Counted from the first letter of the whole stretch, positions 2,650 to 30,832 are shown. The stretch is DNA of 45,030 nt, filler included, from Jimgerdemannia flammicorona (GCA_003990765.1; 2 parts of 2 records of this genome joined end to end with filler, not necessarily neighbours in it); one strand, 5' to 3'. The notes: generated by a model from the letters alone, not told the origin. Made by a program: numbers and translations.

Positions 2650-5600
2650 ATGGCCCTCATAACCGATCCAACCTTCCTCATCCACCAGATGCGCGTCAAG
2701 TACATGCGCATCGACGACCGTGTCGCAGAGCGCATCCTCACATTCTCGCCCACTACAATGACAAACGATTACATCAAGACAGCCGCTCCCGTCTATCCCG
2801 AGATGCAGTACGCTTACTCCCCCACCTACCACCACAACGACAACTTCCTCTCTGGCGGTGCTGCTGGCAGACCCGCACTAACCTCAACCCCATCCTTTGG
2901 CAAGCCAAAATCTCTGGCCTACGGCGGGCGGAGGAAGAAGGAGGTACAGGTCGTGCCGCCCCCAACACACACGAGGGACAACGACAAAAGCAGCGTCGAC
3001 AGCGATGACGAAATTGATATCGAGGAAGATGAGAGCGTGAGGTGAGCCAAGTTGTTTTTTAGGAAAAAACGAGCTTGGGAGATTGTGGAAACCTTGATCG
3101 ATGTACATAAATAGTTAAAAATGATGAAGAGAGAGAGAGAGAGAGGAGGGAGCCTACATCGTACATCGACACAAGCTCACATTCATCTTGTAAATATTGC
3201 AGCGGTAGCGGCAAACCACGACCGCCCATCTTCCGAAAAATCAGCGGCCTACCCAACAACAAGCCCCGCAAGAGCTCGGCACCGGCCCTCTTCGTCACCG
3301 CGCCTTCCAAACCGCCCGACAGCTCGCAACAGCTTTCCGCTGAATCCTTCTCGCCAACCCAAAACCCGCTCAGCTCCCCAGGCGACCTCATGTCTCCCCG
3401 CCTAATAATGGTAGATTCCGTCTCACCATCGCCCTCGGCGCAGATCGACCCCTATTCCCTCATCCCCTCCGTAGACTCGACCACCGATCCAACACCAAAA
3501 ACCTCCCCCGAGATCGAACCCTCAGACGCCGTCTCCGACGCCGCAAAATCTCACCCGGGTACCGAGGATCACGACGTCGACGACCTTACTCCCTTCTCCT
3601 CTCCCGGCGGAACAGGCGGCATGAGCACCATTGCGCCGAACCCGATCATTCCTCTTCCGCCACTCCCAACTCTTCGTCTAGCTAACCTAGCCCTGGACCC
3701 GCTGAATGCGACGACGCGCGAGGGGTTCCCACAGACGCACCACGACCGTACAACTCCCCTCGCCAATCCCTCCGGACGCCCTTTGCCGCTCACGCCGACC
3801 CGTTCCCGCTCCACCCCGACCTCGAATCTCCCCTCGACGACCTCGAGCTTCTCGACCCCGACCTCGCGCCCGCACGCCGCCTCCTCCCCCGCCGCCCCTA
3901 TCCTACCACAGCAGCTCAAGCCGCGCTCCGCCCTCACAGCTCTCATTGCCGAGAAGAAGTCTGCTGCAGAAAACCCGTTCGCTGCCGAGTTCTCGTTCCA
4001 TTCGGGTAAGGGCGAGCCGAGTCCGATGACCCTGTGCGTATACACCCCCTACGCCACCACGCCAAAGGAACCCATGACCGTCGTCGTGAAGAGGGAGTGT
4101 AGTGTCGAGGATGTGATTGGGTATGCGTTGTATCAGTACATGGACGAGAAACGCGAGCCCGGGTTGAAGGAGGAACTGTGGGATATTAATTTGTGGGTCC
4201 TGAGGATTGCGGAGGACGATGGCGAGATTGAGGAGGATTTGCCAGGTATGGGTTGCGCCGATTTTTTTTTTTTCTGTCACTCTTTGTCCATCATTGAGCT
4301 CAAGAGACGGGAGGGGGTAAAATACTTTTTTTTTTTTAAAAAAGAAAAAATTTAATTCGGGGAGGGGGCAATAGCGAACATCCATGCTTGTGGAATTATG
4401 CTGACCGCTTGATATTTATACGATTCGATTCATTACATATATTTGCTTTTCAACACATTCAACCAGCCGTGGACCGGTCGCAAAGGATTGCTAAAGTTTC
4501 TTTTGATCAATTTGCACTATGTGAGGCAACGCCAGCGCAAGGTGAGAATCATATGTTTTTCAATTGTTACCGAAAAAATGCGAATATATCTAAAAAAGGG
4601 AGGTCACATCGTTAAATAGCCGCGTCATAATGAGCACATTCGTCTACTTCTCACAACATCCACCCCGCTTCTGGCACATTTTTAGTCAAACTTAATGAAC
4701 AACTTCATGCCAAACTCATGAAGACCCGACCACCGCCTAACTACGGCTCCTCCGCCGTTCTCACTACCCTCCCCACCAACCCTTCCTCCACCACCACCAA
4801 CCTCGCCTCCACCGCCGCCGCGACCAACAACTCTACCCTTGCAGCCGCATCCGCTGCCGCCGCGCTCATGAACCCTGTCACGGCAACGCTAGCGGCGCCC
4901 GCGATGACGGCCTCGTCGTCTGCTCAACAGCCCTCTAACTCGCAACAACCTCCACCGGCATCGGCGGCGGCGGTGCCCGTCCCCTCGTCCAAATCGACGC
5001 TCACAAAGTCCACGCTCACCAACCCCGTGTACCAGTATCTCCGCGTGCGGCTCATGACTAGCCAGGAGGTCGCAGCCACCATGACCGTCGCCGTGTACGC
5101 CGACATGTTCCTCGGCGACGTGTTGGACCTCTTATGTCGCAAGCGCAAGCTCGACCCGAACCTGTACGTGCTCAAGTTCCCTGACTCTAACCTCATTGTG
5201 CCACTCGATTCCACCGTCGAGAGCTTGCATGGCGTACAGGAGATGACGCTTGTCAAGAAGATGGCGGGATTGACGGCACCGTCGAGCTGTGAGTGTTCGC
5301 TTGGTGTTTTGGGATGATCTAGTTCACTAATTGAATGAGAGCAGAATTGGGGTGAGGTTGGGAATGCGTTGTTATCACCGCGTAATGACACATATTTGCA
5401 TTTCCGTCCTTCTTGGCCACACCGGTGATCTTCACTTGACCATATAGCGAGTCATATCTGGCGATCACCGAGTCGGAAGAGGGCGGACCTATATCAGCCG
5501 ATGTACTCGCCAAACCCCTCGTCGTCGAACGAAGGCAGCGCGTATATGTCGCAGTATAAGGTGAATTGCAGTGGGTGGGGAGTGCGTTTAATGTTGTTTG

Positions 5601-6333
5601 GGTGGGGTTGTGGTTTTGGAGAATGATGAGTTGAGGAAGTGGAAGGGAGAGTCGTTAATTTAATAGCGGATGACTTTCCACATTCAAGCGTGCTGCCGTG
5701 TCTTTTGCGACCGGCAGTCCATAACGTGTTTCTTGACCTCACCTTTCGTACCCGCTATGCAAGTGCCTAAACCGCTCGTTACATCTCTGTCTCTCATGCA
5801 GAAATACATTGTAAACCGCAAGATGCCCGTGTTCGTTGGGCGCCGCGAGAGCACGCTAGCCATCGACGGGGACTACGTGCACATTATGCCGCCGGAGAAT
5901 AAGGGCATGTTTGAGATGAAGACGGTGAGTTTTCGAGATGCCGTGGCCTTCGTTACCGAACAATTCGTTTTGTATTATACCATTAATATATGCCCATCTA
6001 TTCATTGCAGTCGTCGTACCACATCAGCGCTGTCGAGTCATGCAAGCAGAGCAAGAAGGTGCCAACGAATTTCAAGCTCGTCGCGGTGCGCGATCGAGAT
6101 CAGAAGAGTTACGATCTGGAGGCGGAAACACCGAAAGAAGCGAGTGAGTTAGCCTTATACGGTGTTTAGCTTTCCGGAATATTGGCTACGGAGAGAAGTT
6201 CATCGTGTTTGCGAGATTGCTCGCCATGGATACATGCCCGTGAAAGACTCAATCTCCCTCTTTCGTACCTTTTGTAGGTGAGATCTGCACGGCAGTCAAC
6301 TTCTTGATACAAAAGAACAAGGGAACGAAGTGA
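2650..6333 (+). CDS. SIN1: TORC2 subunit Sin1/Avo1/MAPKAP1, 8 exons: join(2650..3041,3203..4245,4467..4541,4686..5288,5448..5560,5802..5924,6011..6143,6278..6333)
   Basis: N-terminus MALITDPTFLIHQMRVKYMRIDD; CRIM region SVEDVIGYALYQY...WVLRIAEDDGEIEEDLPAVDR; ubiquitin-like RBD FLGDVLDLLCRKRKLDP; C-terminal PH domain YIVNRKMPVFVGRRESTLAIDGDYVHIMP...YDLEAETPKEASEICTAV. All introns are GT-AG and phase-consistent. Confidence 0.93.
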
Positions 6334-7568: not shown

Positions 7569-8483
7569 ATGCCCGTCGTCGCCTTCGACGTCATTGGTAC
7601 CCTCTTTGCCCTCGATGTGGCCATCGACCAGCTCGCCGCTACCTTTCCCAACCTATCCGTCCCGTCCCATGTTGCCTTCTACCTCTGGCTCTGGGCTGGC
7701 CTCCGCGACTACTTCGCCAGCTCGCATGCCGGCCCCTATGTGCCTCTCATGACCGTGCTGCGTGCCTCGCTGCCACGCACCCTGGCCGTTGTGGGGTACG
7801 ACATGTCGGTGGTCAAAGACGAAGACTACGATGCTGTCATGGCCTCGTTCAAACGGTTGGAGCTCGCGCCCGGAATGGCCGACGCGGTGAAGCGTCTGAG
7901 CGGTCTCGGGTGGGAGGTGTGGGGGGTGACGAACGGTGGGAAGGAGGCGACGATCGCATCGTTGGGGCGGACAGGTTTGCTCGAGTATTTTGGCGGCGGG
8001 AAGAATGTGCAGTCGTGCGACGATTTGCAGCTTTCCAAGCCTCACCCCAGGGTTTACAATACTTGGATGAGGACGGTGGTCCATGAGACAAAAAAGATTG
8101 AGGTAGGTCCTTTTCGTAAACATTCGCGAACGTTGCAAGCCTTTGAGAGTCTCGGGTATATATACACGTAAATAATCATGTGTTGGAAAAAGACCTTTAT
8201 GTATATAAATCCCCTCTCACTCCCACCCCTCCCATTCCAGAATTTCTATTTCATCGCCACGCACGCATGGGATCTCGGTGGCGCGCATAACAACGCCATA
8301 CGCACCGTGTTCCTGACCACCGAGGAGAAGATCTACATCCCTGGAGTATTCGAGAAACCCGACGTTCAGGGCGACACCATAGAAGAGTGCGTAGAACAGA
8401 TGGTCGGGCTGGAGAGGCGGAAGAGCCTGCTTTGGACCAAGGGTACGGATGCCGTCAAGTTGAGAGTTACTGAACCGTTGTGA
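7569..8483 (+). CDS. HAD-superfamily hydrolase, type II 2-haloacid dehalogenase-like: join(7569..8102,8241..8483)
   Basis: Motif I AFDVIGTL, motif II VTNG, motif III SKPHP and motif IV ATHAWD. One GT-AG intron at 8103..8240. Confidence 0.9.
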
Positions 8484-9024
8484 GAGGACATTTGGTTTTC
8501 TCGTGTCATCGGGGACTTTTTTTTTTTTTTTTGTGTATTGGTTTTACTGTTATATAATCAATACTCCCTTGTGTATGTTTATGCAACGAACAATGTCCAA
8601 GGATTTGTAGGCTATCAACCCTGTATTTTTTTGTTGTAATCATTCGAATTCCTCTTTGGTGGAATTGGATATGCCTATCAGTCATAAATGTACTATACAA
8701 TGAGTGTACAGCACGATACTATTCACCTGCCAGTCAGTGTTGGAATGCGAGTATGTACCATCCACATTAATGACGACAAGTGGTTCTTGGCGTGACGTCA
8801 TCAATCCTGATCGATGTCTTTTGTTAGGCATTCTCTATAAAATAAAATTCACTTTGGTTGTCAGCATCATGCCGATCGTCTACATCTTGCAGGCCCACCA
8901 CACTTCAATCGAACTTCTGACATTTTCACCTTCTTCCATGCCATTAAACCCATGGCCGACAGTGATACACCATCTCTGCTCATGTTTCTGTTGACAGTAT
9001 ATACTCCTGGAGCTTGTCCACTAT

Positions 9025-9709
9025 AGATAGGTTATTCTAAATATGATACTATCTGGAAACTCTTGGTCAATCTCAAAAATATGCAAGATCTTTTTCAAGA
9101 ATTTAAAAACAAAAAAATGCATTGATCATTTATGCAGATTTTCTCTTTAAATAGTTAATAAAAGTTAAGTAATTAACTTAACTATTAGAGATTCACTGAG
9201 ATATTAGTACTAGAGAAGTATAAAAATATCTTTCTAATAAGATTTGAATCTCCTTACTATTGATCAAATAGTTATTATATAAAGTTCTCACTTTATATAA
9301 AGATAATTAATTTTTACTAATACAAGTAAAATTTATTAAAATTTATTTTTATTTTATTATTTTTAAAAAGAAAAATATAAAATTTTTATATAGTTTATTT
9401 AATTAGTTATATTTTCTCTTTTTATAATATTCTAATACTTTCTAAATATCTAAAACTCTTCTTTTAATATTTAGTTATAGTTAGAATATTTTTATTTTTT
9501 ATTTTTAATATTAATTATTTTATTTTAGCTAATTATAGAAACTTATAAAACATTATAAACTTTTCTAATTATTTTTAGTTTAAACTTTATTTTGATATAT
9601 ATTTAAGATTTTTTAAAAATTTTTCTTTTCAATTTTATATAAATATTCTCTTTATTTACTTAAATATATCTTAAAATATTTTTAAAATATCTTCTTTTAG
9701 AATAGTTGA
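9025..9709 (+). mobile_element. Relic 3' end of a chromovirus (chromodomain C-half, 3' UTR, PPT, partial LTR), related to Gypsy-A and inverted relative to it
   Basis: 9028-9110 reads IGYSKYDTIWKLLVNLKNMQDLFQEF, matching the Gypsy-A chromodomain. 9240-9700 aligns to the reverse complement of Gypsy-A ~9810-10340. Extremely AT-rich. Confidence 0.7.
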
Positions 9710-10163
9710 TATAATAGTTCTAGTTTCTTTAAGAGAAAGTAGCTAAGACTAGTAATTCTGACAAGCTTAAAGTAGCTCAAAGAGATACTTATAGATTTAA
9801 GTATTTTCAAAAAATTTCTAAAAAAAAATATTCTGAGCTTTATTTAATTAGAAAATAAGGATATTTATATAAAATCTGAAAGAAAGATCCAGAAGGATCT
9901 CAGAAAAAAAGAGAAAAGCTAAGAAATAAGTTCTTAGCAAAGATGACTAATAATATTCTATAATATTTCAAACTAGCCAAGATATGAAACTTAGTACTGA
10001 GAAAAGATAAGAATATTCTAATAAGGTCTTAGTACTAAGAGAAGATTTCTAGATATTTAAAAGATACTAGAACATAGTAGAATATATAAAAAAAGATAAG
10101 AAAAGACTAATAAAAATATACAAAAAAGTACTAAGACTAAATTATAACTATAAAATTATTATA
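9710..10163 (-). repeat. Gypsy-A 3' LTR, with PPT at 10164..10176
   Basis: Direct repeat of 15291..15717. Termini tataat/attata are mutated TGTAA/TTACA. The adjacent purine tract on the minus strand is AAGGAGAGAGAGA. Confidence 0.9.
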
Positions 10164-13100
10164 TCTCTCTCTCCTTAAGAACCAATATCCCCATTAAATT
10201 CTTAGATAATATAAGATTAAATATACTTAACTAAAATTTCTCAAACTTTTATCAGTATATTGATGAGAACTGGCTATCTTTATATAGAGCAGAGAGCCTA
10301 TATTAGATTAACTAACTAGGAGAGATTTAAATTTAGCTAGTAGTCTTATTTCAGTAAACTTTATGTTTACTAGATATTCTGCTAATTTCAGAGTCCCAAA
10401 GTGAACTTCATACTGGTTATTGCTATAGATCATTAATAATCCAAGAAAGTCACTATAAAGATTAAGTAATATGTTTTGCCTCAAAGTCTTGAATTAGATC
10501 TTAAGAGTTCTTGAGATTGATCAGTAGTTTCCAGATAGTATTATATTTAGAGTAACTCATCTACTGAATCAGATATTCAAGATAATAGTAACATATTTGC
10601 TTGTTAAGAATTTTCTTAACCTCATACTTGATATGATCTTCAATAATTACAGAAATAGATAGCTTGAGAATTCTACCAGAGTAGGACGGTAACTAATTCC
10701 AGATCTTAAGATATAATACATATGAAAGACTAGATATACTCTTATAATTTCAGGTAGCTTGAGATGGTAGGAGGATATAAAGACTTATTTGATAATCTCA
10801 AAAGTCTAATATACTTAAGTTGGAACTTATTTGATAGATGGTTGACTTGAAATTATATCTTGAGATTTTCAGTAGATAGTAAGACTTAATCTCTAATAGT
10901 ATAGGTAATATTATAGAACTTCTTATCAGCATACTTGGCTTGATGCTATTGGGCCTTCTGGAGGTTTATAGTAGCAATCTTGAGTAGCTCATTCATTTTG
11001 TTAGTAAGATTCTTAGTAGTAGAGACTTGTATTTAACTGCTTTTCTTAAAAAAAAAAAACTAGACTTGCAGAGATCTCAGGATCTTGACTATAGAGTAGT
11101 TAAAAAGAAAAAAGACCAGTAGATAATTGGATAGTATTGTTATATATAAATTCTGTATAAGTTAAATAGTGATCCCAATTATCTTACTTATAAGAAATAT
11201 AGTTTCTAAGTATCTATTCTAGAGTTCTGTTCATATACTTGATTTGTCTATTAGTTTGTAGGTAAAAGATAGTAGATATAGCCAATTGAGTTCTCAGAGT
11301 CTTAAAGAGAGTTTACTAAAAGTAACTGATAAACTTGGGATCACAATCACTGATAATTACTTATGATAGGTCATAGTGACAGAAGATGAACTTAAAGAAG
11401 ATTTTTACAATCTTAAGTATAGTAGTATTGGTAGTAGTTGATTCAGTAATCATAGTCTTAGTCAGATGGTTGACAAATACAATAATAGTATTAGTACTAG
11501 ATTGAGTTCATAGTAGTTGAGTTACAAAGTTCATTATAACTTACTTGAATTTCTTAGTTGAAATTAAGAGTGGTTATAGCAAACCAGTTAGTGCTTAATT
11601 GGTAGACTTATTGAACTGATAGAGATTATAGCTAGTAATATAGTTCTTGATTTCCATAACCATACTTGGCCAATAGTAGCAGTATTGAATATTTTTAACT
11701 GTTTTCTCAATTCTAAGATAATTAGTAAGAGGAAAGTAATGGTATTCTTGTAGTATCTTTTAGTATAGATTTATGTTATCAGATAGATAGACTTAGTCTT
11801 AATAATAGATCAGATTGTCCTCAATAGTATATATATCCTTGAGCTCATTTGAGAAAACTCTAGTAGTAATAGTATCTTTTTGTACCAAGATGACTTACAT
11901 AATTGTAATGAGGTCTGAGTATCTGGATAAGATATCTGATACTACAAGTATCTTGCCAGACTTATAAATAATCATTGGGTTGAAGGTTTGAAGCTTGGGA
12001 CTCCACTTGACTTATAGATATGATAGAGTAGATTGGGTATTGATGTACTTGAGTACTTAATGGTCAGTGATGACATCAAACTCAATATCTTCTAGATAGT
12101 ATTATCAGTAGTCTAGTATATATATTATTATCAGCAGCTCTTTCTCATAAGTGACTAGCTTTTATTTAGCTGAGACTAACTTATAGAATTTGAAGACAAT
12201 AGAGTAATATTCTTTACCATCATCTTAAAACAGAACTACTTCAAAGACAAAATTTGATACATTAGTAGTAATAGTAAATTTTAGACTTAGATTTACATTA
12301 TGCAGAACTAGAGTATGGGTCAGACTATTTTTGAGTTCTTAGAAGACTTATTGACAGAAGAGGTCCCAGGTATAAGATATATAGTAATCAGAGTAAGGTA
12401 TTTTCCTTATGAGATTAGTCAGTAGCTCAGCAATATTAAAGAAAGTAATGATAGTAGCAGCTAGACCAAGAAAGGACCAGAGTTCTGTGAGGTTTAATAG
12501 AATAGACCATTCTTGGATTGTCTCTATTTTATATAGATCAACTTGAATTCTTTGTACAGAGATAATATAGCTAAGATATTTGATTTGTTCTTTGAAGAAT
12601 TCATACTTCTTAAGCTTTGTATAAAGCTTGTGTTTTTGCAGGATCTTCAGAACTATTCAGATATACTTGAGGTATTCTTCTTTAGTTATACTAAAGATCA
12701 GAATATTATTAAGATATACCAATAAAGAGATAAATAGTTAATTCTTGAATATCTTATTTATGAGAGTCCAGAATATAGTAGATATATCAGTAAGATAAAA
12801 TACTAGAACTAGAAATTCATAAAGTCTAAAGAGAGTTATGAATGCAGTCTTAAAAATATCTTCTGGCTTGATTTGGATTTAGTGGTATTCTGATATAAGA
12901 TTTAACTTAGTAAAGTACTTGAAATTCTTGAGAGTATCAAAATTTGATCAATCAAGGATATTGGATATCAGTTCTTAACTATAAGCTTATTGAATATACA
13001 GTAGTCTATATATATTTACAAAATACTATTCTTTTTTTTGACAAATAGAACTGGTGAGCCAAGGGGGACTTACAGAGTTGAATAGCTTCTTATATAAGTA

Positions 13101-13797
13101 GTTCTTCTAGTTCTTTCTTATATAACTGCTTTAATTTTGAGTAGTGATATGTTATATATATATTTCTTGAGTAATATAGCTCTTGGGGTCAGTTTAATTT
13201 TATAATCAACTTCTTATATAGGTGGTAAACTAGGTAGCTTATCTGGAAAGATATCCTTGAATTCTTCAAGTAGTAGCTTGATGCTTTCATTGATTGATAG
13301 CTTCTTGTCTTGTCTCTTGAGATAGACTGCCTTCTTGAGTACTTTCTTATATTATATTGCTGACAGTATTGTAACTGGGGTCTTGTTTATAGACTTGTCT
13401 GTCTTAATAGTAATATTGACTCTATCTTGAAGTAAAGTAAATTTATTTTTACACTAATCAATATTTGAGTTGTATTTCATAAGCTAGAGTTTTCCTAAGA
13501 TCAGATTATAATCTCTAAGTAGTATGATCTCAAAGTCTACTTATTCCCAATATTTCTGGATCTTGACAAGTAGTTTGGCAGCAATTAACTCAATAGAATG
13601 TAGTATACTAACTATAGTTACTATGCTATTATTCTTAAGTACAGGCTTGGTGAGAATCTTGAGATTTTTGATAAGATTCTGGTTAATGAAGTTCTCTATA
13701 GCTCCACTGTCTATGAGTACTTGAAATTTTTTTCCTTTAACTAGACCTTTGAAAATGAGCATTGCTTGAGCTTAATTTTCAGTAAGACTTACTACTT

Positions 13798-14222
13798 AAT
13801 CAGTATTACCAAAATCTTTCTAATCTTACTTAGTTTTGGATAGTTCTTAGACTTTGGTAATCTTGAGTTAACTGGCTTTTTCTAAGATCATTTGTATGAC
13901 TTAGTCTCCTTTCTTGACTATATAGTCTTAATCCTTCTAATTGATAAGTAAGACTTGAACTTGTCTTTGATAGTCTAGATTAATAATACTAGTACTAATA
14001 TATATCTAAATAATATTTAATACCAAGTCCTGATCATAGTGCAATTCTAGTATACATAATGTCCTTTGGAATATTAGACTATAATTCCAATAGATATTAG
14101 AGTTCAGCCCTTAACTGGAATAGTGACTTACTTGATAGAGTATATATTAAGACCAATAACTTCTCCTAATTTATATTGAGAGATCTGTATCTTTAGATAA
14201 AGTATCTTGATCTTGAGTTTAG
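13798..14222 (-). pseudogene. dut: Degenerate trimeric dUTPase of Gypsy-A, between the gag knuckle and protease
   Basis: All five motifs recognisable: VIGLNIYS (AGLDLYS), RIAL*SGL (RIAPRSGL), IINLDYQRQV (VIDPDYRGEV), KKGD*VIQMILEK and K*D*KDFGNTD (RGxxGFGSTG). Confidence 0.85.
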
Positions 14223-15276
14223 GTTGACTGAAGGTGGGATTGACAGGTGTGTCTTTGGACAATACAGTAACTGGTCTTGAGAGTTCACTAATCTTCTTAG
14301 AATATTTGATTACAATATGTCCTATTTGGTAATAGAAGAAATAAGCTCTAGACTTCTTTAGGTAGTTTTTTTCTTCTGAAGTAAGCTTGCTATTTTTCTT
14401 ATTTATGATATTTAGGTTCATTGGTGCTGGACTAACTACTTTGGATTAGTTCTTATAATAGTTCTCAAAGTGGTTCTTCTTGTAGTATTCTGGTTCAAAG
14501 CAGTTGTTAAAAGTGATAATATCAAATCTATTGGCAATTCTCATAACCTCATTGAGAGTCTGTAGCTCTTCTAGCTTGACCATGACTCATATATTTCCTT
14601 TTAGGTCTCAGATATAGTGGTCTATCTTTTTATTATCAGATATTACTAGTAGTTTAAGTAAAATTAACAGGAATTATATATTGTAACTTTACATAGACTT
14701 GAGTAACTTGATGTTCACTAGCTTATCTTAGACTAACTTAGTAATATTAACAAACTTGAACTACTGGTAGAGAGCTTTCTTAAAAGATTTTCAATCTTGG
14801 ATTTTTATATTTAAGTATATAGAAGTAGTCATAATATAATTATATTACCAGATAGCTGTATTTTCTTGAAGAAGTATGGTAGCAAATTGGACTTGCATGT
14901 CTTCTTCCATTCTTATAAGTTTGAAGTATTGATCCAATTAGAAGATCTATATATCTATAGTTAGTTCTCCTTAATGATCATTAAAGATATCTGACTTGAG
15001 TAACTTAAAACTGATTAATATAGTAGTAGAATATGATATAGCTACAGTTTTGGTCTTCTGATATTCTAGTTATACTTGAAGTTATCAGATTTGATGAGTC
15101 ATGGTGGTAATTATATCCTCCAGATTGACTTGTGGTTCTACTCTATCTGCTTCTTCTATAGCAGAGAAATCTGGATAATAGGCTGATTTTCCATAATTCA
15201 TTTTGGGCTCATATAACTAGTTTTGACTAGTTTCTGAATTTGTATAAGATTTTTAATAAGGTAAGATATAATAACA

Positions 15277-15288
15277 CCACTGCTATCA
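15277..15288 (-). promoter_or_regulatory. Primer-binding site of Gypsy-A, initiator tRNA-Met type
   Basis: TGATAGCAGTGG (degenerate TGGTAGCAG...) 2 nt from the 5' LTR; the same motif occurs in Gypsy-C. Confidence 0.7.
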
Positions 15289-15290
15289 AG

Positions 15291-15717
15291 TGTAACAGTT
15301 CTAGTTTCTTTAAGAGAAAATAGCTAAGACTGGTAATTCTGATAGATCTAAAGTAGCTCAAAGAGATACTTGTAGGTTTAAGTGTTCTCAAAGAATTTCT
15401 GAGAGAAAATATTCTGAGCTTTATTTAAGTAGAGAATAAGGATATTTATATAGGATCTAAAAGAAAGATCTAGAAAGATCTCAGAAATGAAGAGAAAAGC
15501 TAAGAAATAAGTTTTTAGCAAAGATGACTAATAATATTTTACAATATTCCAAACTAGTCAAGACATGAGACTTGGTGCTAAAAAAAGATAAGAATGTTCT
15601 AGTGAGATCTTGGTACTAAGAGAAGATTTCTAGATATTTGAAAGATACTAAAACATAGTAGAATATATAAGAAAAGATAATAAAAAGATACAAAAAAGTG
15701 CAAAGACTAACATTACA
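15291..15717 (-). repeat. Gypsy-A 5' LTR
   Basis: TGTAAC...ATTACA termini; TATA-like CTATATAAATATCC on the minus strand near 15440-15453; close to 90% identical to 9710..10163 by eye. Confidence 0.9.
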
Positions 15718-16029
15718 AGATAGATATTTGATTATAGTATCTAAATCTAATTTCTGATATAGTATAGTATTATATAAAGTTTAGCAATCATAGTTATATA
15801 ATTTGTACAATTATATAAAAAGTACAACTATACAAAACTCACAATTATACAGATTTCACAGATGTACAATTTGTATAGATATACAAATCTCTCAACTATA
15901 TAAAATAACTTACAGGAAAAAAAGTTTTAACTTAGCTACTAAATAGCTAACAAAATTATATAAATATCTCTAGTATCAAGAGTAAATAAATCTCAAATTG
16001 AAATAGTTTAAATAAAGAGATAAAGAACT

Positions 16030-16285
16030 AGTAAGTCTACAGATAGAGATATTGTTAGAACTATTATCTCTATAGGAGAGATTGTACAGTATCTGGGCAT
16101 TTTCTTATCAGTATATAGATTAGTCTTGCTCAGAGCTTGGTGGGAAAGAAAGATGATAGAATAGAGAGATATCTTTCAGAGTTGGAGGGGGTACTATATT
16201 TTTCTTATTAGATAGATATTGATTTTGAATATTTATTGGCTGCCAAAGCTCTGGTATCTGGTATACTACTTGAATTTTTCTATAT
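16030..16285 (+). mobile_element. Old internal fragment of LINE ORF2
   Basis: Reads IVRTIISIGEIVQYLGIFLSVY...WWERK...ILNIYWLPKLWYLVYYLNF, matching VIGTIVPTGEAVRYLGIYLSVY...ILNVYWLPKLWYLAYHLDF in the full-length LINEs. Confidence 0.85.
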
Positions 16286-16712
16286 CCTCATAGTTATCTA
16301 GTTGCTCTAAAAACTATATAAATAGTACCAGATATCCAGATTGAGATAACTGAATTTTGAAGATACTATATCTTAAAGATACTATATTCTAAGAATATAG
16401 TGGAAGTCACATATTATATTTAACCATACTGTATATTCTATAATTACTCAGATAGTAACCAGGTAGCAACTATAACTATATAAAATACTCCAGAGATAAG
16501 AGTGAATAAACCTTAGTCTAAAAAGTTCAAAAGCAAATAACAAGTCTGCCTACTACACTTTGAGAGAAACTCTAAAGCTACTGCTAGGAGATTGTGAGCT
16601 TACTTTCTACTCTGATTTACTTTTCAATATAAAGAAAGAGTCTATTTTCAAGAGAAGTCTGCTACATTTTTAGTTTGCTTGCTAGATAAGTCTGAAATCT
16701 CTCTTTCTACAA

Positions 16713-16935: not shown

Positions 16936-17429
16936 CAAGAATCTGTACTATCTAAGTTATCTGAATTATTCAAATTATCTACCAACTAAGTTATTATTTA
17001 AGTTATCTACTATATTCAAGAAATCTGCTGATTCAGAAGAATTTGTACCAAATTGAGTTATCTACCAACCTGCTTATTAAGGAATCCACCAAATTTACCA
17101 AGAATGTTCTATCAGAAATTACATACTTTTGGAGATTCTTACACTATATAGAAATCATTATACTATTCAAAATTGTTATATAGAAATTATATATATAAGA
17201 AACCTGTTATACTATATAGAGACTATCAAACAAAATTACCACTATACCTAAGAAATATCTCAATATGGAAATTGATCATTATATTCAGATTGACTATTAA
17301 ATCACTAAATATCAATAAGAAATCTTAGAACATTTTATTGCTTTTTGACAAAGTAACTGGGGGCTCAAGCCAAACTACATTAACTCTCAACCTTATAATT
17401 AGCCTCTATTGAGCTGAGCTTATTATATT

Positions 17430-17445
17430 TGGGGGCTCAACTCAG
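17430..17445 (+). promoter_or_regulatory. Primer-binding site of Gypsy-B, tRNA-Pro type
   Basis: TGGGGGCTCA 2 nt after the LTR end; compare the MLV Pro PBS TGGGGGCTCG. Confidence 0.7.
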
Positions 17446-17884
17446 CTTACAAAAACTTATAGTCAAACTAGATATATTTGATACAATACTAATCTCTACT
17501 ACTACAGGAGAACTAGTCATTATCAGCATTTGGACAGGAAGAGAAGTAATTACTTCAAGACTTCAACTATCTACTATCAGAAAGATCTCAACCAGAAGCC
17601 AATATAGTACAGAACTCTCAGTCAGTACCAATAGACTTTCAGATTATACAGATAGCCCCACTAGAGTCCTTAATGAGCTCTTATAAGAACTTTAAGACCT
17701 CATTATATGAAGCTGATTTTCTGCTAAAGTTCTACAAATTTTACCTATTAAATTTCTTCCACTAGCTATCACAGAATAAGAAGACTAAGAAGTAGCTCCT
17801 TCAAGGATACTCAGACCCATTCCACCTTACTCAAGATCTATAATATCATCTTTAGGATACCCAAGTATCCTAAACTCCAGCAAT

Positions 17885-17954
17885 AATTCAGAAAGTGAAT
17901 CAGAATCAAAATCAGAATCAGAATTAGCATCAGGATCAGAACTAGAATTAGAAT
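17885..17954 (+). repeat. Degenerate (GAATCA)n hexamer repeat encoding an ES-rich tract upstream of the gag core
   Basis: gaatcagaatcaaaatcagaatcagaattagcatcaggatcagaactagaattagaa. Confidence 0.7.
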
Positions 17955-20900
17955 GAGAAGATAGTGATGATGAAATGGCCACCCTATTACCAACCTTCAC
18001 AGGATACTCAGAAGAAGATCTAAAGAATTCTTTTATAGAATTGAAGAAATCATAGCTCTAAAGAACCTCTCTCCTAAAAAAAAAGTTGTCATCTATAAGA
18101 CCCAACTTAGAGAACCAGCTAAAGGAATTTTCACTTGAGCAAGAAATGATATAAACTCAGACCTTGGAGCAGTCATCAATACAGCACCAACCTGGTTAGC
18201 AGAGTATAAAGCCATGACTCACCAGCTTATTGAAAAGTATATAGAAAATGAGACCCACCATAAGTCTCAACAATCTATTATAGGAATTAAGATGAATCTT
18301 AGAGAATCACATAGAGCATTTTTTATAAGAATTCAAAAGAGAATATATACTACTGAGTTCAATACCACCAATCAAGATATTATAGGTCTAATAACTGTCA
18401 TAAATGGGATTTTGCTAAACATTGCTCAGTATATCTATACTCTAGGCATCAGAAGGTCTAAAGAACAAGTAGATACAGCCTAAAGATTTTTCAATATCAG
18501 ATAAGGAACCATCTGGAGTGACCATGATAAGAAAGATGACAAGGAAGATATCTTGGTCAAAGCCCTACAAGGACTCCTCTAAGGACCAGAAAGGTCTGAA
18601 GAAAGGAAGCCAGCTAAAGAATAGAAGAAGAAAATAAATAAAATCTAAGACCTTAGCTCCAAGTTGGACTGATTGGTTGGACAGATTGAAAAACTCACTA
18701 TATATAAAAATTGGAGCTATCTATAAGACAACAGAGGGTATATATCACAAAGGAATCAAGGATACCTACTCAGAGATAACAGGAGTTATCAGTAAGAAGA
18801 AAAAAGAAATCTTGTCTAGATAGAGCTCAAGTTCAACACTTCTACTGTGGATAATTCAGACACTATACTACTGAATATAATAACAAAAGAAGTGACTAAA
18901 GAGACCCAGAACCACTAAATTGAAGGAATGAAATCCAGTATAAGAAGACTAAAGCTCACTCTGTCGAAGACTTTGAAGAAGTAACAGTGAAAACTAGTAA
19001 CCTGGACCTATATCTAGCTAAATTTATCACCAGAAAGACAGTCTATTCAGCAGAGAAAAGGAAGAGACCCATAGGAAGACCATCCAGAAATACCAGTAGG
19101 AAAATTCAAGAAGATAAAGAATATAAAGAAGAGTAAGTAAAAACACCTTTTCAGTCTCTCTCATATTTTATTCCTAAAATAAATAAACTACTACTAGAGA
19201 ATGAAGAAATGGAGCAAGAAGAGCCTACTGGTCTGAAGCCTAAGGAGTAGTATACCCTGAAGACCATACCCTGAGACATCTACAATAAAGCCTGGTAAAA
19301 TATTTAAGAAGTTAAGATAGAAGTTCCTCTCCTCTAGTTTCTGTAGTTGATACCTACTGAAGTTTAAAATAAACTATTGAGAATCACTAGGTCTAGTACT
19401 GGCCAAGTTTCAATCCCACAGTAAGAATCAGCTCCCACCCCTATTCAAGCTACAGAAAGACATGTCAGCACCTATTTATATAGAGATATTGGAGAACAAA
19501 AGGTGAAAATCCTTATAGATATAGAAGCAACTCTCTGTATCATTACCAAATAATTTCTAGATACCCTCTAATGGTCTATTGATAGACTATCCAATCTTAG
19601 TATTATGTATAGTAGTAGATAGAGCCTGAACCCAATTCTTCGGAGAAGTATGAAACATTACTATCTCTCTGAGACACATTCAGTTTTTCATTTTAAAAGC
19701 TATTGTCACTGAAGCTGTTATCTATGATATGATCCTTGGCACCAACTAGATGAAAGAAATGAATATAGTTGTTGATATTGGTCAATAAGTACTCAAGTTT
19801 GATTACTGAGGCAAGAAGTACAGAGTTAAGGTGATCAGTTATAAGCAATTAAAGAAGAAGAAGAAGCTCACTATCCAGAAAGAATATATCAGTAGTGAAG
19901 AGTCTACCACAGAAGAGAAAGAAGAATCCAAAGATAGAAATGATTCCAAGCTCAATCCCTGAATCAATCTAGTAGATAATAGATCAAAAGACAATATTTA
20001 GATCAGAAATACTATCCCTATCACTATTGGAACTATTGTTGGACAGATCAAAGGATACTCTATCTATCTCAAAAGATACAAGTGCCCCAAGCACTCCTCC
20101 AAGATCATTGGGACAAGAAATTTGTTTGGCACAGTCTGCTCTGAGTATAGAAAAGAAAAGAAGAAATACAGATATATTCTAAAGACACCTATAGCTAAAG
20201 CTGTAGAAATATAAGAAATCTAGAGTCAAGAGTCATCTAAAAAAGAAGAAACCTCTGAGCAAAAAGTTCTTGAACAAGAAAAACCCAAAGAGAAAGAATT
20301 CCTCAAACTCATTCTCTGGGATGACTCTCACTGGACACTACCTAAAGATAATGATTCCTAAAATATTGAAGAAGGATCAAGCATAGTTACCATTGTTTCA
20401 AAACAAGAAACACACCAAGAAAGAGCCTTTCAGCTAGGAAGATATTGATATCAAATGGTCTTCCACTCTCTCTGAGACTACTACTACCAATGCTACTTAC
20501 TGGATTAACAAGAAAGACAGAGACCCTAAGGCCAGAACTCCTAACTATAATTACATAGTTAACTATCTTCCAGGAAGTCACTATAAGATTACAAAGTCAA
20601 GCTAAAGGATAAGACCTCTTTACCTAAACAGAAGTATACCCCTTGGTCACCCTTCTCCTAACCTATGACCAAGATAGATACTGATTCTCAAGACAATAAG
20701 AAATCAATAACTGAGAATAACATTTTTGAGTAATAGAATATTGTAACCATAGAAGACACTCAGACTGATGAGACCACAGATACCAGAAGATTCACCTCAG
20801 TCAGAATATTACAATCTATACTCTAAAGAGAGGAAATAACAGAACTTAGATCCAAAAAAGCCAGGCCAAGAAACCAGAAAGAAGGACCCTCAAGATCTAT

Positions 20901-21099
20901 GATTTAGGAGAAGATATTCTAGCTCTTATTAGACATACAACCCACCAAGGATGGGTAGAAGATGCTACCAACTTTATGGAAACCTTAAACCCAACAGGAA
21001 AGAGAGGAATCAACCACTTTTACTGGAGCCAGATGGCTGCACCTCAACCTCAGAGCCTAGAGGCTTTCTGTCAGTGAAGCCTCAGCCCAAGGATAGTCT

Positions 21100-21520
21100 G
21101 AACTTAGCAAAGATGTTACCTAGTATATTCTGCTAATTCTAAGACCAAACCCCCATCTAAAGCTCACCAAGAAGATGTAGAGTATGATCTCTATAGTCTG
21201 GAAGATGAACTTATCAAGCCTGGAAGAATCTTGGTGTTCTGAATAAGACTAGCTATATAGCTGCCCAAAGGAACTTATATTTAGCTTACCTTAAGATCTG
21301 GACTTACCAGACAAGGAGTAACTGTAAAAGGAGGAACCATAGATATAGAATATATAGGTGAAATCAAGATCATCCTGTATAACAGTGGTACAGAATAATA
21401 CTAAATTCTTAGAAGATAGAAGATTGTTCAAGCAGTCTTTATGAAAGTCAAGACTCCTCAACTACAGGAAGTCTCCAAACTGACCAAAAGAATAAAGCAA
21501 GCTGAAGGATTTATACTCAG
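21100..21520 (+). pseudogene. dut: Degenerate dUTPase of Gypsy-B, between protease and RT
   Basis: KAHQEDVEYDLYS, LRSGL, GGTIDIEYIGEIKIILYN, KIVQAVF and KQAEGF. Confidence 0.85.
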
Positions 21521-22468
21521 ATAAGAAAGAAGTACATCTCCTCCAGATCAATTACCTAAAAAAGGTTGCCCTCCAAAGTATATTACCAATCAATCAAATT
21601 GCATAAGAACCTCATCCTAGAGCCTAGAGAGCAAACCATTTTCAAAATCTTTATATCACCTAACCCTAGGAATCTCTTCTTTGAACTCAATAAAGACATT
21701 CTGAACCTAGACATTGAGAGATATATATTCCCTAACAATATAAACTCTGTATAGTCTCAAGCAATCAACCAGAGCTGAGAAAATATCTTCTTACTAAAAG
21801 AACTATTATAGGACATCTTGTGTCCTTCCTCAACTAAATCTATAGAGAAGTCTATAAGCTAAACTTATCAGAAAATGGCAAAAGATCTCAGAAGAAAGGA
21901 AAGACCCCTCTGCAATCCAGGAGACAGTAAAGTCTTCCACCAATATTAGAGAAGAATTGATACCTCAGCAATAGCAAAAATTAGTAGAACTCCTCTACAA
22001 ATATCAAGATATCTTCACTACTAATTATGGCAACCTTCTATATAACCTATTATACCATTACAGTATAAATACAGAAAATATAACATCTATCTAGCAGAAA
22101 CCATATAGAATACCCCATTACCTAAAAACATTTGAGAAGGAACATATTCAGAAACTCTTAGACAATAGAGTCATCCAACCCCTCTATCAGTCTCTGGACC
22201 AGTTCTATACTTATTGTACTAAAGAAAAGAGGATGGAGACTCTGTATAGACTACAGGAAACTCAATTCAGTTACTGAAAAGGATGTCTATTCTTTACCCA
22301 GAATTGATGATCTCTTAGACCAGTTACAAGATATCAGATACTTCAATAGTATAAAACTTTTTATAGGATTCTATAAGATCCCCATAGATCCTAAAGATAT
22401 TCAGAAAACAGCCTTCCTTGTCTTAGGAAAACTGTTTAAATACCTCTGAATATCCTTTTTTTTTTTTT

Positions 22469-22568: not shown

Positions 22569-22960
22569 CTTCCAGAAGTCCCATGGTAACCCATCCTCCC
22601 CTGGCGCCATTCCAAGCTTAGTGGCCGCAAGGACACTCTGGATCTCCTCTTCTTGCACCGGTAGTATCAAGTCACCCAATCCATCTACCTGCGGCGGTCT
22701 CCACTCTCCTAGTGTATCTGCTATTGCCTCCCCATCAGCACCCCCTTCTCCCTCGCTCCACAAATTCTGCCATCTCTCCTTCAATACTCCTAGGATATGT
22801 TGTGTGCCATGCACCATGATGCCCTCTGCATCTAGGATCCCCTCCCACCTATGCCGCACCCACCTAGCCTGAAGGAGTCTTGATAAGTACCTAGTAGGCC
22901 TCTCACCTTCCTCAAGCCCCTGCCACCGGAGCCTAGCAGCCATAGCTATTGACATCCTCA
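22569..22960 (-). mobile_element. 5'-truncated LINE (ORF2 EN-RT linker), cut by the contig start; same subfamily as LINE-1
   Basis: ARLRWQGLEEGERPTRYL...GMAPGEDGLPWDFWK; colinear with 29341-29720 and retains CpGs. Confidence 0.9.
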
Positions 22961-25900
22961 TTAAGATCTTCTAATTTGGTCTAGTGTTGTTATACTATTT
23001 AAATAGTCAAAAGTTCAGTAATATCTATTTTTCTCAGAAAGTGGTATGTTTGCAGTATAGTTGTCTAACACATTGGATTTATATGTTAAAGGGTCATGTG
23101 TTCAATACCATATGCTGGAAGTGATTCTGATGTCATTCACTACTAGAGAATTTCCTCTAAGGAATCTTCTTAAATGTCTATGTCTCATTTTCCACCAGTG
23201 GTATGAGGAGAATAGGCTGACTTTCAGTTTTGCTATTTTTTAGAGGGTCAGTATCCTTTTGTCTTGTCTTGCTGAGTTCATGATTTTGTTCATAATAATT
23301 ATAAGGGTACTGGATGTTCAAAAGAGATAATATATAGTATAGACTGATAGGTGCAGAGTGTTTGAATTTCAGTTGTTCAAAGAATTATATATATTCTTGA
23401 ACTAGATCAGTAGTATTCTGAAGGTTGGTCTTAGATTCCTATATTGCATTATGAATCAAATAGTCTTTCTATTTGACAAGGTACTCTGGATGATTCTTGT
23501 AGCTGTATTTGTTGAGGATTTGTTCAACTTTGTATTCTTCTTGGTCATTAATAATGACAGGTACAGGTAGTTCTGTATTTTGGTTGGGAAATAGCTTGTT
23601 ATCATTTTCATTATATCACTTGAGTTATTGGACATTGAAGACTGGGTGAATCTTAATAGTATCTAGTAGTACCAATTTGTAGGAAGTTGGAGAGACTTAT
23701 GCAATAACTTCAAATGGTTCAATGAATTTGCTATTTAGCTTTGTAGATGGTCTATGCTTGAGGTTATCAACTCAGTATCCTCAGATATCTAGTAGAACCT
23801 TTTCTCCAATATCAAAAGTTTCTTCTTAGTAGTACTGGTTGATATACTATAACTATTGTTCTTAAGCTTGGGATAAATTATTGATTGCAATCTGACTTAA
23901 ATTGTATATTTGGAGCAGGAATTCTTCAATAGCTTTGACTATAGAGAGTTCTATCAGTAGTTCAGATAAGTGTTAGAGAGGTGTTTGAGTTTTGTTCTAT
24001 GTTGGTAAAAAAATGGAGTTATTCTAAGAGAGGCTTGCTTACTGTTGTTGTATACAAACTTGACTGCAGTAAGGTGTTCATGCCAATCATCTTACCTATA
24101 GGAAACATAGTTCCTTAGTATTTGCTCCAGGGTTCAGTTCATTCTTTCAGTTTGGCCATCATTTTTGAGATAAAAGGCTATAGATAGTACAAGCTTCATT
24201 CCAAGGTATGTATGGAGGGCTTTTTAAAAATAGCTAGTGAATTTCAGGTCTCAGTTGCTAATAATGATCTTGAGAAGACCATGATAGTAGAAGATGTTGT
24301 CAAGCAAGAGTGTGGCTATATCTGGTATAGTTGCAGTAGTGATAGTTAGTACAAAATGGGTCTGTTTGCTGAGATAGTCTATGAAGATAATAATTGTATC
24401 TTTTCTATTCTTGGTTCAGAGTAGTTATACAATGAAGTCCATAGAGATTTGTTCTCAATTAGCAGATGGTACTGGAATAGGGTGGAGTAGGTCAGGTTTT
24501 GCTAGTGTTGAGGACTTGTTATATTGGTAGACATTATAGGAAGTGATGTAGGTCTTTAGCTGATCTGCTATATAAGGCCAATAGAAGTTTCAAAAGATAA
24601 CTTTATAGTATTTATCAAATCCTAAATGTCTGGCTGTAGGAATATCATAACATTCAAATAGGATAGTCCTTTGGAGATCTTAATTATTAGGAATATATAG
24701 TCTGTTCTTATAGTAGATAGTATTATCCTTCAGTTGATATTAGTGATATCAGGTATACTTGTCGATATCATTACTGCTTAGGATTTCTCAGAGTACTTGA
24801 GCTTCTTTATTATCAGCATATGCTACAGTAATTGTCCCATAATAGAGTTGGTAACTATGGTGAGAGTTTAGATGATCTCTTTAATTAGTAGTCTGGAGAT
24901 TACATCAGTAATAATGTTTTTCTTACTAGGGTAATACTGGATTTCATAGTTAAAGTTGGTAAGGACTTTCATCTATCTGACTTACTTCTATGAAAGGATA
25001 GCCTAAGTCTTGATATTGACTAATGATTTATGGTCTATCAGTACTGTGAAGTGTGCTCTTTTAAGATAGGGTCACTATTTGATCAGAGTGTCTACAATGG
25101 CTAATATTTCTTTCTTGTGGATTGCATAGTTGATTTTGACATCATTGAACTTGTGAGAATGATAGGCCACAGAGTGTCCTTCTTGTATGAGTACTGCTCT
25201 AAGAGCTAGATCAGAGGCATTAGTGGTAACTTTATATAGGAGGGCAGAGTTTGCCACTTGAAGTACTAAGGTAGTTATCAAGGCATCTTTCAGTGCTTAA
25301 AAGGCTATATCTTGTTCAGATCTCCAATTTATAAGATTATTGAAGTCTTTTTCTTGTTTTGTAGTCTAAGGCTATTCTTCTTTCTTACTATGCTTGGTCA
25401 TTTGGGTGAGAGCAGTAGCAATTTTGGCAAAGTTTGTAACAAATCACTAGTAGTAGTTTGTTAGTTCTAGGAATAACTGAAGGTTCTTCAACTTCTTAGA
25501 TCTGGGCCATTCCTTGATTGTGGAGATTTTGCTGAGGTCTACTTTGATTCCATTAAAAGTAACAATGTATTTAAGAAATTGAATTTTCTTCAGAAGAAAT
25601 TCACATTTGCTGAGTTTTACAAAGAGTCTGTTTTCTTGGAGTTTCAGTAGTACTAGTTTGAGGTGTTTGAGATGTTCCTCCAGAGTTTTGCTGAAGACTA
25701 GGATGTCATCAATATAGACAATAACAAATTTGTCCAGGTATGGATGTAGAATGGTATTCATCAGTGTTTGGAAGGTTGTAGAAGTATTAGTTAAGTCAAA
25801 AGACATAACCAAGAACTTGAAATATCTATAGTGGGTTCAGAAGGCTGTCTTATAGATATCTTCTTCTTTCATGGTGATTTGTTAGTAGCCATTTCACAAA

Positions 25901-27146
25901 TCAAAAGAGCTCATGAATTGTGGATTGGTAAGCCTATTGAATATTTCAATAATCTGAGATAGTGGGCAACAGTTCTTTATGATCTATTTGTTGAGGTCTT
26001 GATAATCAATATATATTTGCAGTTCTCCTTCTTTCTTGACAACAAAGAGGACTAGTGCACTATAGAGTGATACACTGGGTCTAATGAATCCTTATTCTAG
26101 AAGTTCATCAATCTTTTTCTTGAGTGCATCAATTTCTCTTAGAGACATATAGTAGATTGACTTGAAGGCTGGCTTGATATCAGGGATAGTCTTGATGGCA
26201 TGATCTACTACTTGTTTAGGTAGTAGGCCTTTTGGAAGTTTCTTCAGAAATATGTCTCAGAATTTCTGAAATAGGGGTCTGATATAGCTATTAACTTTGG
26301 AAAAATTTTCTTCAGAGTTCTCAGATTCTCCTTTGGATAGTCAGATGGAGATAGCAAAGAGAGAGCATTTCTTGGCTAATTTCTTGAGTTGTAGTTTGTT
26401 GATGTAGGTAATCTTTGGTCCAGAGTTACAGGAACTGAGTGGGTCTCTTTTATCTTATAGTTTGAAGTTGTGGCATCCTTTCTTGATGGTCAGAGAATGG
26501 TTTATCTAATTGATCATAGAGTTTTCTTATTTCAACCATGGGGTTCCCAGGATGATTTCATTGTCAGGAAGTGGTACAATCTGAAGTATAACATGTACTC
26601 AGTAGTTACCAATTTGGAAGAGTAGGTTATAGACTTCCTTACTAATGAAATAGGAGATTCTATTAGCTATAGCAACTGCTTGAGTCTGTTGTATCAGAGA
26701 GGTCAGGACCTTGAGTCTGTTGGCAGTTTCTTCATTGATGAAGTTGCCTGAGGCTCTACTGTCTATTATAATCTTAACAGGTGCTCAGTTGACAAAAGCT
26801 TAGAGTGTAAGTAGTTTGTCTGATCTAATGCTGGTAATTTCAGTTATAGGAGCTTTCTTTCTATTGGTTTTTCTTTGGGTCAGTTCATTGATATAAGAGA
26901 AGCAATCATTGATCATTTGGAAAGAGTATATTCCAATATTATAGAGATATCAGCCACTTGGTATAAATCCATCTTCAATTTTCTTATAGAATTGTTCTTC
27001 TTTGTTTATAATAGATTAGGTTGAGGCCTTATTTGATGAGCTAAATCCCCCTTTTTTTTTTTATTTTTTTATTTTTTTTATAGTCACTCAGACTTCCTTC
27101 CTTTATTATGCCCATCTATCCTATATAAATATAGTGATCCTGCCCC

Positions 27147-30801: not shown

Positions 30802-30832
30802 AAGAAATAATGTTAAATAATGATCTCATCCT

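Follow-up and report, generated by a model that had tools for sequence, protein, structure and literature searches.

In a stretch of 45,030 nucleotides from the Jimgerdemannia flammicorona assembly GCA_003990765.1 (hereafter the window), the retroelements have been eroded by transitions that run from C:G to T:A, and the analysis centres on one of them, Gypsy-A. The interval 9710–15717 is a single dead Ty3/Gypsy retrotransposon on the minus strand, with Ty3_capsid, RVP_2, RVT_1, RT_RNaseH and Integrase_H2C2 domains in this order between two long terminal repeats (LTRs). On visual inspection, there is a polypurine tract about 25 nt inside the 3' LTR (LTR-L), and a stretch resembling a primer-binding site adjoins the 5' LTR (LTR-R); the two segments of the element that are matched by the protein P0011 in tblastn contain 28 stops. 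The erosion of this element and of its neighbours takes CpG first and then cytosines in the other contexts. It is real and well beyond chance, and it concerns a lineage, the Endogonales, for which the full-text literature searched yielded no report of methylation-driven repeat erosion or of erosion resembling repeat-induced point mutation (RIP). Cytosine methylation is the explanation that fits best, and I consider it about evenly balanced between right and wrong.

The two LTRs of Gypsy-A offer a clean record of change after insertion. In their MAFFT alignment (columns 67–498; 421 aligned bases), 372 columns are identical, 45 hold transitions and 4 hold transversions, and a single indel accounts for another 11; an earlier note on this DNA had arrived by hand at roughly 43 transitions and 2 transversions, which the scripted count bears out. 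Transitions thus make up 45 of the 49 substitutions, above a 2:1 expectation (binomial p = 3.7e-5). Accordingly, the pair is 86.3% identical over 437 nt in blastn, and 98.6% identical over 419 nt when the sequences are reduced to purines and pyrimidines. Expressed per site, C>T changes amount to 0.176 per G/C site-copy, versus 0.0048 per site-copy for transversions, a 37-fold excess. When the G/C state is taken as ancestral at the transition columns, the reconstructed LTR contains 0 CpG, and 0 columns oppose TG to CA. All 45 changes therefore lie outside CpG, as far as the pair shows. The same note had placed many changes outside CpG, citing GAGAG opposite AAAAA and TG opposite TA; both are visible in the alignment, and the excess of C>T is not confined to ancestral CpG. 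The note had named such a confinement, coupled with the same spectrum in single-copy neutral DNA, as what would overturn its interpretation, and the first half of this is answered here. Sorted by 3' neighbour, the changes fall at 19 of 62 CpA, 7 of 26 CpC and 17 of 162 CpT, while no 5' neighbour is preferred (T 19/128, C 8/26, A 13/66, G 5/36).

The weight of transitions is also apparent from the way in which the repeats of the window can be found at all. Ordinary four-letter blastn gave just three repeat pairs. Collapsing the whole stretch to purines and pyrimidines before BLAST newly recovered an inverted copy of the LTR, two remnants of a long interspersed nuclear element (LINE) and the kinship of Gypsy-A with a second Ty3/Gypsy element, Gypsy-C (about 80% purine/pyrimidine identity). 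The inverted LTR belongs to a truncated copy of the Gypsy-A family, A2. Its segments 9023–9108 and 9234–9324 match the reverse complement of 10479–10564 (93%) and of 10256–10340 (89%), respectively, and 9420–9683 matches the reverse complement of both Gypsy-A LTRs (85%). Likewise, LINE piece a is 89% identical, as purines and pyrimidines, to the reverse complements of LINE1 and LINE2, and LINE piece c has 81% identity to 29341–29715, which rises to 94.7% after the collapse. That several of these relationships are seen only once transitions are ignored indicates that transitions dominate the divergence.

The LTR pair alone does not give the direction of change, and the only outgroup, A2, is too eroded (GC 0.16). 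It retains G/C at 4 sites; 18 sites give no information, 11 are poorly aligned, 3 have a third state and 2 involve a transversion. Polarity was read elsewhere. In pol, residues conserved in at least six of eight distant homologues were used, and replaced codons were classed by the change needed to produce them. The protein relatives (13 for Gypsy-A at 20–37% identity, 6 for the LINE at 22–26%) are distant and served for polarity at highly conserved columns only. Among 176 such residues of Gypsy-A, 88 are unchanged, 30 require a forward change (C>T or G>A), 5 a reverse change and 1 a mixed one; the remaining 52 replacements need a transversion, many of them surely alignment noise at about 26% identity. 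A MAFFT-based count for the same element gave 23 forward versus 3 reverse. Gypsy-C behaves similarly, with 22 forward, 4 reverse, 30 transversion, 1 mixed and 94 unchanged among 151 residues. Where a stop occurs, the residue most frequent among the homologues is Q, R or W in 9 of 31 cases in Gypsy-A and in 14 of 31 in Gypsy-C, six of the latter being TGA opposite R. Of the coding decay listed in the earlier note, YLDD>YLNN, C>Y, H>Y and the conversion of Q, W and R to stops were found again, with C>Y and H>Y falling in the integrase zinc finger; catalytic residues are among those lost. D>N replacements are present as well, and G>D is not among the positions scored.

The second source of polarity is LINE piece a, scored at the 191 sites where the GC-rich LINE1 and LINE2 agree. 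Its forward changes number 44 (C>T at 18 of 27 sites and G>A at 26 of 71) and its reverse changes 10 (T>C at 5 of 58 and A>G at 5 of 35), and 16 sites carry transversions. From the ratio of forward to reverse rates, GC would settle at about 0.2, not far from the 0.16 of A2, the most eroded DNA of the window. By context, 12 of 16 CpT, 9 of 22 CpA and 8 of 32 CpC are changed in this piece. The less eroded pieces behave differently: forward changes, reverse changes and transversions number 8, 8 and 4 in piece c and 29, 20 and 43 in piece b. The comparison of LINE1 with LINE2 (1066 transitions, 787 transversions) was discarded as a mutation spectrum, the two being diverged lineages and not post-insertion twins. 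Two independent lines, the pol residues and LINE piece a, therefore show that the change runs from C:G to T:A wherever it can be polarised. The basis of these counts is one LTR pair, with its 49 differences, and a few hundred polarised sites, in a single stretch.

The loss of CpG follows the repeats. In 1-kb bins, the observed/expected (o/e) ratio of CpG is 0.00–0.05 in 9001–22000 versus 0.83–1.21 in 1–9000 (the bin that starts at 22001 holds an artificial joint, see below), and a mere 12 CpG are present in all of 9000–27051, 8 of them in LINE piece c. Over all retroelements of the window the CpG ratio (rho) ranges from 0.00 to 0.18, and in the genes it is 1.06. The contrast between CpG-free LTR elements and CpG-rich genes that had been described earlier is thus confirmed, and so, on composition, is its restriction to repeats: the final CpG before the repeats is at 8957, 43 nt from a repeat edge at about 9000, beyond which GC drops to 0.27 and then to 0.16. 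The single-copy SIN1/AVO1 gene serves as a control, its open reading frames (ORFs) having a GC content of 0.51–0.60 and a CpG o/e of 1.14–1.37. Unique non-coding DNA of the first contig, sampled in a 1.4-kb intergenic stretch, a 3' flank and two gaps that resemble introns, has a GC content of 0.40–0.48 and a CpG o/e of 0.70–1.31, figures that describe composition and not a mutation spectrum.

The retroelements can be arranged in a graded series (Table 1). From LINE2 through LINE1 and the interiors of the Gypsy elements to the Gypsy-A LTRs, CpG goes to zero, CA/TG passes from excess to deficit and GC content falls, while CT/AG rises from 1.24 in LINE2 to 2.05 in the LTRs. This series indicates that CpG is lost first and completely, that its products pile up, and that CpA and CpC fall later. 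At the CG sites of LINE2, LINE1 has CA or TG in 32 of 63 cases, as counted among the eight commonest outcomes. Repeat-restricted depletion of CpG, with TpG and CpA in excess in the younger copies, is the pattern by which methylation-driven decay is recognised, and it is present here.

Is this RIP? The earlier note had called the pattern RIP-like, a label that goes further than the sequence supports. One hallmark of canonical RIP is present, since repeat copies have diverged mainly through C:G to T:A transitions (45:4 in the LTRs; 30:5, 22:4 and 44:10 in the polarised sets). The other, a strong preference for CpA without preferential loss of CpG, is not: CpG is the first target, CpA is mildly depleted and the preferred context varies by element, with CpA favoured in the LTRs and CpT in LINE piece a. 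A metagenome contig (L001, 1–9419) provides a control for classical RIP. It was the single locus returned by a metagenome scan for further copies of Gypsy-A, to whose reverse transcriptase (RT) it has 41% amino-acid identity, and it represents a different family. L001 is a textbook RIPed sequence, with (CA+TG)/(AC+GT) of 0.02–0.14 and CpG o/e of 2.3–4.3 in nine of ten 1-kb bins; bin 1001–2000 is an island of normal composition. The corresponding values for Gypsy-A, 0.81–1.04 and 0.00–0.05, are the reverse. Gypsy-A therefore resembles the RIPed repeats of Neurospora crassa and other Pezizomycotina in being a repeat-confined, AT-rich, stop-filled product of C:G to T:A change with few indels, and it shares with them, as do its flanks, a positive composite RIP index. 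However, Neurospora-type RIP exhausts CpA and spares CpG, whereas here CpG is gone and CpA is mildly reduced.

The host also speaks against ordinary RIP. A 274-residue J. flammicorona protein matches 7569–8480, a gene for a hydrolase of the HAD-like type, over its full length at 273 of 274 residues, with a 30-residue gap that corresponds to the intron; among named relatives, Umbelopsis proteins come next, at 54–55%. By this protein match the host is a fungus of the Endogonales, in the Mucoromycota. The early-diverging fungus suspected in the earlier note is thereby given a name, and its fallback, a Pezizomycotina species with ordinary RIP, is excluded. A Basidiomycota affinity of the SIN1 CRIM domain, suggested by ESM Atlas clusters, is overruled by the same match.

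The hypothesis that I consider the most likely, at an even chance, is that methylated cytosines of silenced repeats deaminate at two speeds, fast at CpG and slowly at CpH (H being A, C or T). The CpG of silenced repeats would be kept methylated by a maintenance enzyme of the DNMT1/DNMT5 type and would be lost first; the young LINEs, in which CpG rho is already 0.05–0.18 and TpG/CpA in excess while GC is otherwise intact, may represent this stage. In CpA, CpC and CpT, methylation would be sparser and due to a relaxed or DIM-2-like enzyme, as on the transposons of Phycomyces, and these cytosines would decay slowly, pushing old copies toward about 16–30% GC. This suggests a repeat-specific process of cytosine mutation whose outcome mimics RIP on standard indices and differs from it in the order of its targets. 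The precedent is Phycomyces blakesleeanus, of the same subphylum, for which Lax et al. (2024) describe 5-methylcytosine (5mC) in CG and CHH of transposons and which encodes DIM2 and DNMT1 (PMC11258239, PMC7862722). As described there, methylation is confined to repeats and is heaviest on LTR elements, and such a mixture of CG and non-CG methylation would give a two-speed decay (PMC11258239). The Phycomyces study measured methylation, whereas the present data are a mutational footprint (PMC11258239).

Several points weigh against the methylation hypothesis. 5mC on these elements and the DNMT genes of the host are proposed by analogy. The 37-fold ratio of C>T to transversions is high for a methylation that is sparse at CpH, and in the LTRs CHG is hit as often as CHH (8 of 40 versus 35 of 210), unlike the CHH-not-CHG pattern of Phycomyces. 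The polarity of the LTR differences rests on the assumption that G/C is ancestral. In addition, CpA is favoured over CpT in the LTRs (odds ratio 3.8, p = 4.8e-4). LTR-L bears 31 of the inferred changes and LTR-R 14 (p = 0.016), an imbalance that is not expected of a uniform clock. By the standard RIP indices, for which TpA/ApT should be high, (CpA+TpG)/(ApC+GpT) low and the composite index above 0, one part of the window only, 9000–17000, scores as RIPed, with a composite index of 0.23–0.77; this index is -0.09 to -0.87 in Gypsy-B, Gypsy-C, 32524–38417 and the LINEs. Finally, the edge of the repeats is sharp, and spreading heterochromatin might blur such an edge.

Much of this would be accommodated by a genuine analogue of RIP, that is, a deamination triggered by homology or duplication, acting in all contexts, probably linked to the sexual cycle and operating without the ascomycete enzyme RID. 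I regard such an analogue as on the unlikely side. The extreme excess of transitions, the preference for CpA over CpT, the positive composite index across 9–17 kb, the decay of Gypsy-A by point changes with few indels and the sharp boundary would all be in its favour. So would the inequality of the LTRs, the more heavily changed of which abuts the inverted copy A2. RIP-index signals have moreover been reported, with caveats, outside Dikarya, for Zoophthora radicans (PMC11105155). The order of targets is nevertheless the reverse of that in L001, with CpG the first and complete casualty, and the context preference is not reproducible between the LTRs and LINE piece a. Neurospora-type RIP has a length threshold, contrary to which the shortest repeat piece of the window (LINE piece a, 272 nt) is among the most eroded. 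By eye, the order of the LTR changes contains no clear same-strand runs.

Comparative data bear on the RIP analogue as well. RID-dependent RIP was found only in Ascomycota in the survey of PMC4352252, and both that account and PMC13297926 describe RID as confined to this phylum, whereas the present host belongs to the Mucoromycota. In the kingdom-wide screen of Badet and Croll (2025), repeat-enriched mutation signatures are presented as unique to ascomycetes (PMC12543289), and J. flammicorona, with 23 k-mers enriched in non-coding DNA and 0 in repeats, is scored 'no_rip' (PMC12543289, supplementary file 12). The assembly is, however, given there as 231 Mb with 73% repeat (supplementary file 1), and the contrast of repeat with non-repeat DNA may have little power in such a genome. 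It is conceivable, though in my view doubtful, that Endogonales possess a repeat-triggered, RID-independent, cytosine-deaminating defence that takes CpG first and then all other contexts; with three quarters of the genome made of repeats, a defence of this kind would have escaped screens based on indices or k-mers. Of the two options left by the earlier note, an analogue of RIP or dense 5mC with deamination, the second fits better and is the more probable.

A neutral decay is quite unlikely. It would consist of CpG loss through methylation, followed by a universal AT-biased mutation, with selection or biased gene conversion keeping the GC content of genes and flanks near 50%. AT content does rise with age as measured by transversions: A2 differs from Gypsy-A at 7–15% of positions on the purine/pyrimidine scale and has the lowest GC, and LINE piece a has its 16 transversions in 191 sites at a GC content of 0.32. 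The unremarkable ratio of transitions to transversions between LINE1 and LINE2 and the unbiased changes of LINE piece c point the same way. On the other hand, the 45:4 ratio of transitions to transversions outside CpG, obtained from a clean comparison of changes since insertion, is far above the 1–3:1 of fungal mutation-accumulation studies, and unique introns and intergenic DNA of the same contig have retained a GC content of 0.40–0.48 and a CpG o/e of 0.7–1.3. It is hardly credible that an AID/APOBEC-like deaminase edited the complementary DNA (cDNA) of the retroelements in the course of reverse transcription, prior to integration: the A-rich, G-poor coding strands of the Gypsy elements, which argue weakly for it, are common among retroelements generally, the 33 C>T versus 12 G>A among the LTR differences, read on the coding strand of Gypsy-A, are the reverse of minus-strand cDNA editing, the LTR changes lack a TC or CC 5' preference, and the same erosion, graded with age, is found in LINE remnants.

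Table 1. Features of the window, with symmetrised dinucleotide ratios (CpG, CA/TG) and GC content
Feature	Coordinates	Strand	CpG	CA/TG	GC	Remarks
SIN1/AVO1 gene (TORC2 subunit)	3111..6152	+				three exon-like ORFs; single-copy, CpG-rich control
HAD-like hydrolase gene	7569..8480	+				one 90-nt intron; taxon marker
A2, second Gypsy-A-family copy	9000..9711	+			0.16	5'-truncated (integrase tail + LTR); no CpG
LTR-L, 3' LTR of Gypsy-A	9712..10147	-	0.00	0.42–0.71 (both LTRs)	0.23–0.27 (both LTRs)	31 of 45 inferred C>T/G>A changes
Gypsy-A internal region	10148..15292	-	0.01	0.88	0.29	spread over three frames, many stops; Pfam, stops read as X
Gypsy-A integrase zinc finger	~11768–11604	-				
Gypsy-A RNase H	~12368–11982	-				
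Gypsy-A RT	~12938–12561	-				
Gypsy-A protease	~13768–13427	-				
Gypsy-A dUTPase	~14002–13802	-				Pfam 7.2e-7, weak
Gypsy-A gag	~14790–14479	-				
LTR-R, 5' LTR of Gypsy-A	15293..15718	-	0.00	0.42–0.71 (both LTRs)	0.23–0.27 (both LTRs)	14 of 45 inferred changes
LINE piece a	16029..16300	+			0.32	heavily eroded remnant, 272 nt
Gypsy-B, Ty3/Gypsy	17001..22468	+	0.01	0.92	0.35	RT start (22237–22458) cut by end of first contig; matched by P0011 in tblastn
Gypsy-B dUTPase	~21153–21512	+				Pfam 3.7e-19
LINE piece c	22569..22943	-			0.55	cut by start of second contig; least eroded copy, 8 CpG
Gypsy-C, kin of Gypsy-A	22950..27051	-	0.01	1.13	0.34	protease, RT (RVT_1, Pfam 1.7e-34), RNase H, integrase, SH3_Tf2-1; CpG-free
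LINE1, non-LTR retrotransposon	27052..32523	-	0.05	1.23	0.49	
LINE piece b	35824..36412	+				5'-truncated; ends in pure A40 tail (36373–36412)
LINE2	38407..43901	-	0.18	1.26	0.52	APE endonuclease (Exo_endo_phos, Pfam 3.3e-7) and RT (RVT_1, 3.2e-26) in one frame; T39 at 38407–38445 is the minus-strand poly-A tail

The window consists of two contigs placed end to end, the joint at 22469–22568 being made of N44, the six-frame stop spacer TTAATTAATTAA and N44 again. The features on its two sides are not genomic neighbours, a circumstance that the earlier note had missed, and the idea that LINE piece c is a short fragment embedded beside Gypsy-B was dropped on this ground. The evidence from Gypsy-A lies entirely inside the first contig, and both repeat families are also present in the second.

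Other features of these elements deserve mention. Between 9000 and 10147, A2 is set tail to tail against the 3' end of Gypsy-A in a close inverted repeat, the two arms of which are the most AT-rich DNA of the window (GC 0.16 in A2, 0.23 in LTR-L). In both Gypsy-A and Gypsy-B a dUTPase domain stands between gag and protease, which is noteworthy where deamination erodes repeats. Gypsy-B also contains a (GAATCA)10 microsatellite at 17897–17959. The copies of the LINE family, of which LINE1 and LINE2 are each about 5.5 kb long, range in GC content from 0.55 down to 0.32. LINE piece b and LINE2 share their terminal sequence and have perfect A40/T39 tails; such pure tails would fit a process that leaves A:T pairs almost unchanged, or simply insertions that are young. 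The plus strand of LINE1 and LINE2 has about 36–38% C and 13–14% G (GC skew -0.33 to -0.53), so the coding strand is very G-rich, and open frames of 100–317 codons occur on both strands. This strand composition is not explained by C>T decay and seems native to the LINE family. On the gene side, the SIN1/AVO1 product has the Pfam domains CRIM (1e-32), UBL_AVO1 (2.3e-9) and SIN1_PH (4.7e-12), and an ankyrin-repeat ORF (Pfam Ank, 2.8e-5) lies upstream of it at 1799–2239 on the minus strand.

Biases that resemble RIP are known in other fungi, and Horns et al. reportedly described in 2012 a CpG-biased C-to-T bias of this sort in transposons. According to Amselem et al. (2015), RIP-like C>T bias at CpA, CpT or CpG is widespread and tracks Dnmt1 subfamilies (PMC4352252). 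The CpG-biased form, described there in Basidiomycota and some Ascomycota, is like the present case in its repeat-restricted CpG loss and its excess of TpG/CpA in young copies, and it is likely to be methylation-dependent, as is proposed here (PMC4352252). It differs in that the present elements lie outside Dikarya and that their older copies have been eroded past CpG, to a GC content of 0.16–0.30.

For early-diverging fungi the published record is mostly negative. RIP signatures went undetected in Mucoromycotina according to Dallaire et al. (2021), who refer to Venice et al. (2020) (PMC8647823), and a 2026 review describes 5mC as near-undetectable in early-diverging fungi (PMC13297926). In the account of Stajich et al. 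(2024), RIP-index signals in Entomophthorales are given with explicit caveats and RIP is otherwise placed in Dikarya only (PMC11105155). The case of Zoophthora radicans and other Entomophthorales resembles the present one as a composite-index hint in a large, Ty3-rich genome outside Dikarya. It concerns Zoopagomycota and is based on window indices only, whereas here the spectrum of an LTR pair and polarised counts are available, and these speak against the canonical RIP context (PMC11105155).

RIP and RIP-like mutagenesis are regarded as a trait of Dikarya, mostly of Ascomycota, and the window displays a clear, repeat-restricted C-to-T footprint, at CpG and beyond, in a mycorrhizal fungus of the Endogonales. 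Two lessons are practical: a positive RIP index does not require canonical RIP, and purine/pyrimidine collapse is a cheap screen for transition-eroded repeats. On the conservative reading, cytosine methylation would have been an important and long-lasting source of mutation in the transposons of Endogonales, and methylation-driven erosion would explain why the assembly has a GC content of 43% while its genes have about 51%. If an analogue of RIP were instead at work, the origin of repeat-directed mutagenesis would move much deeper in fungal evolution, outside Dikarya.

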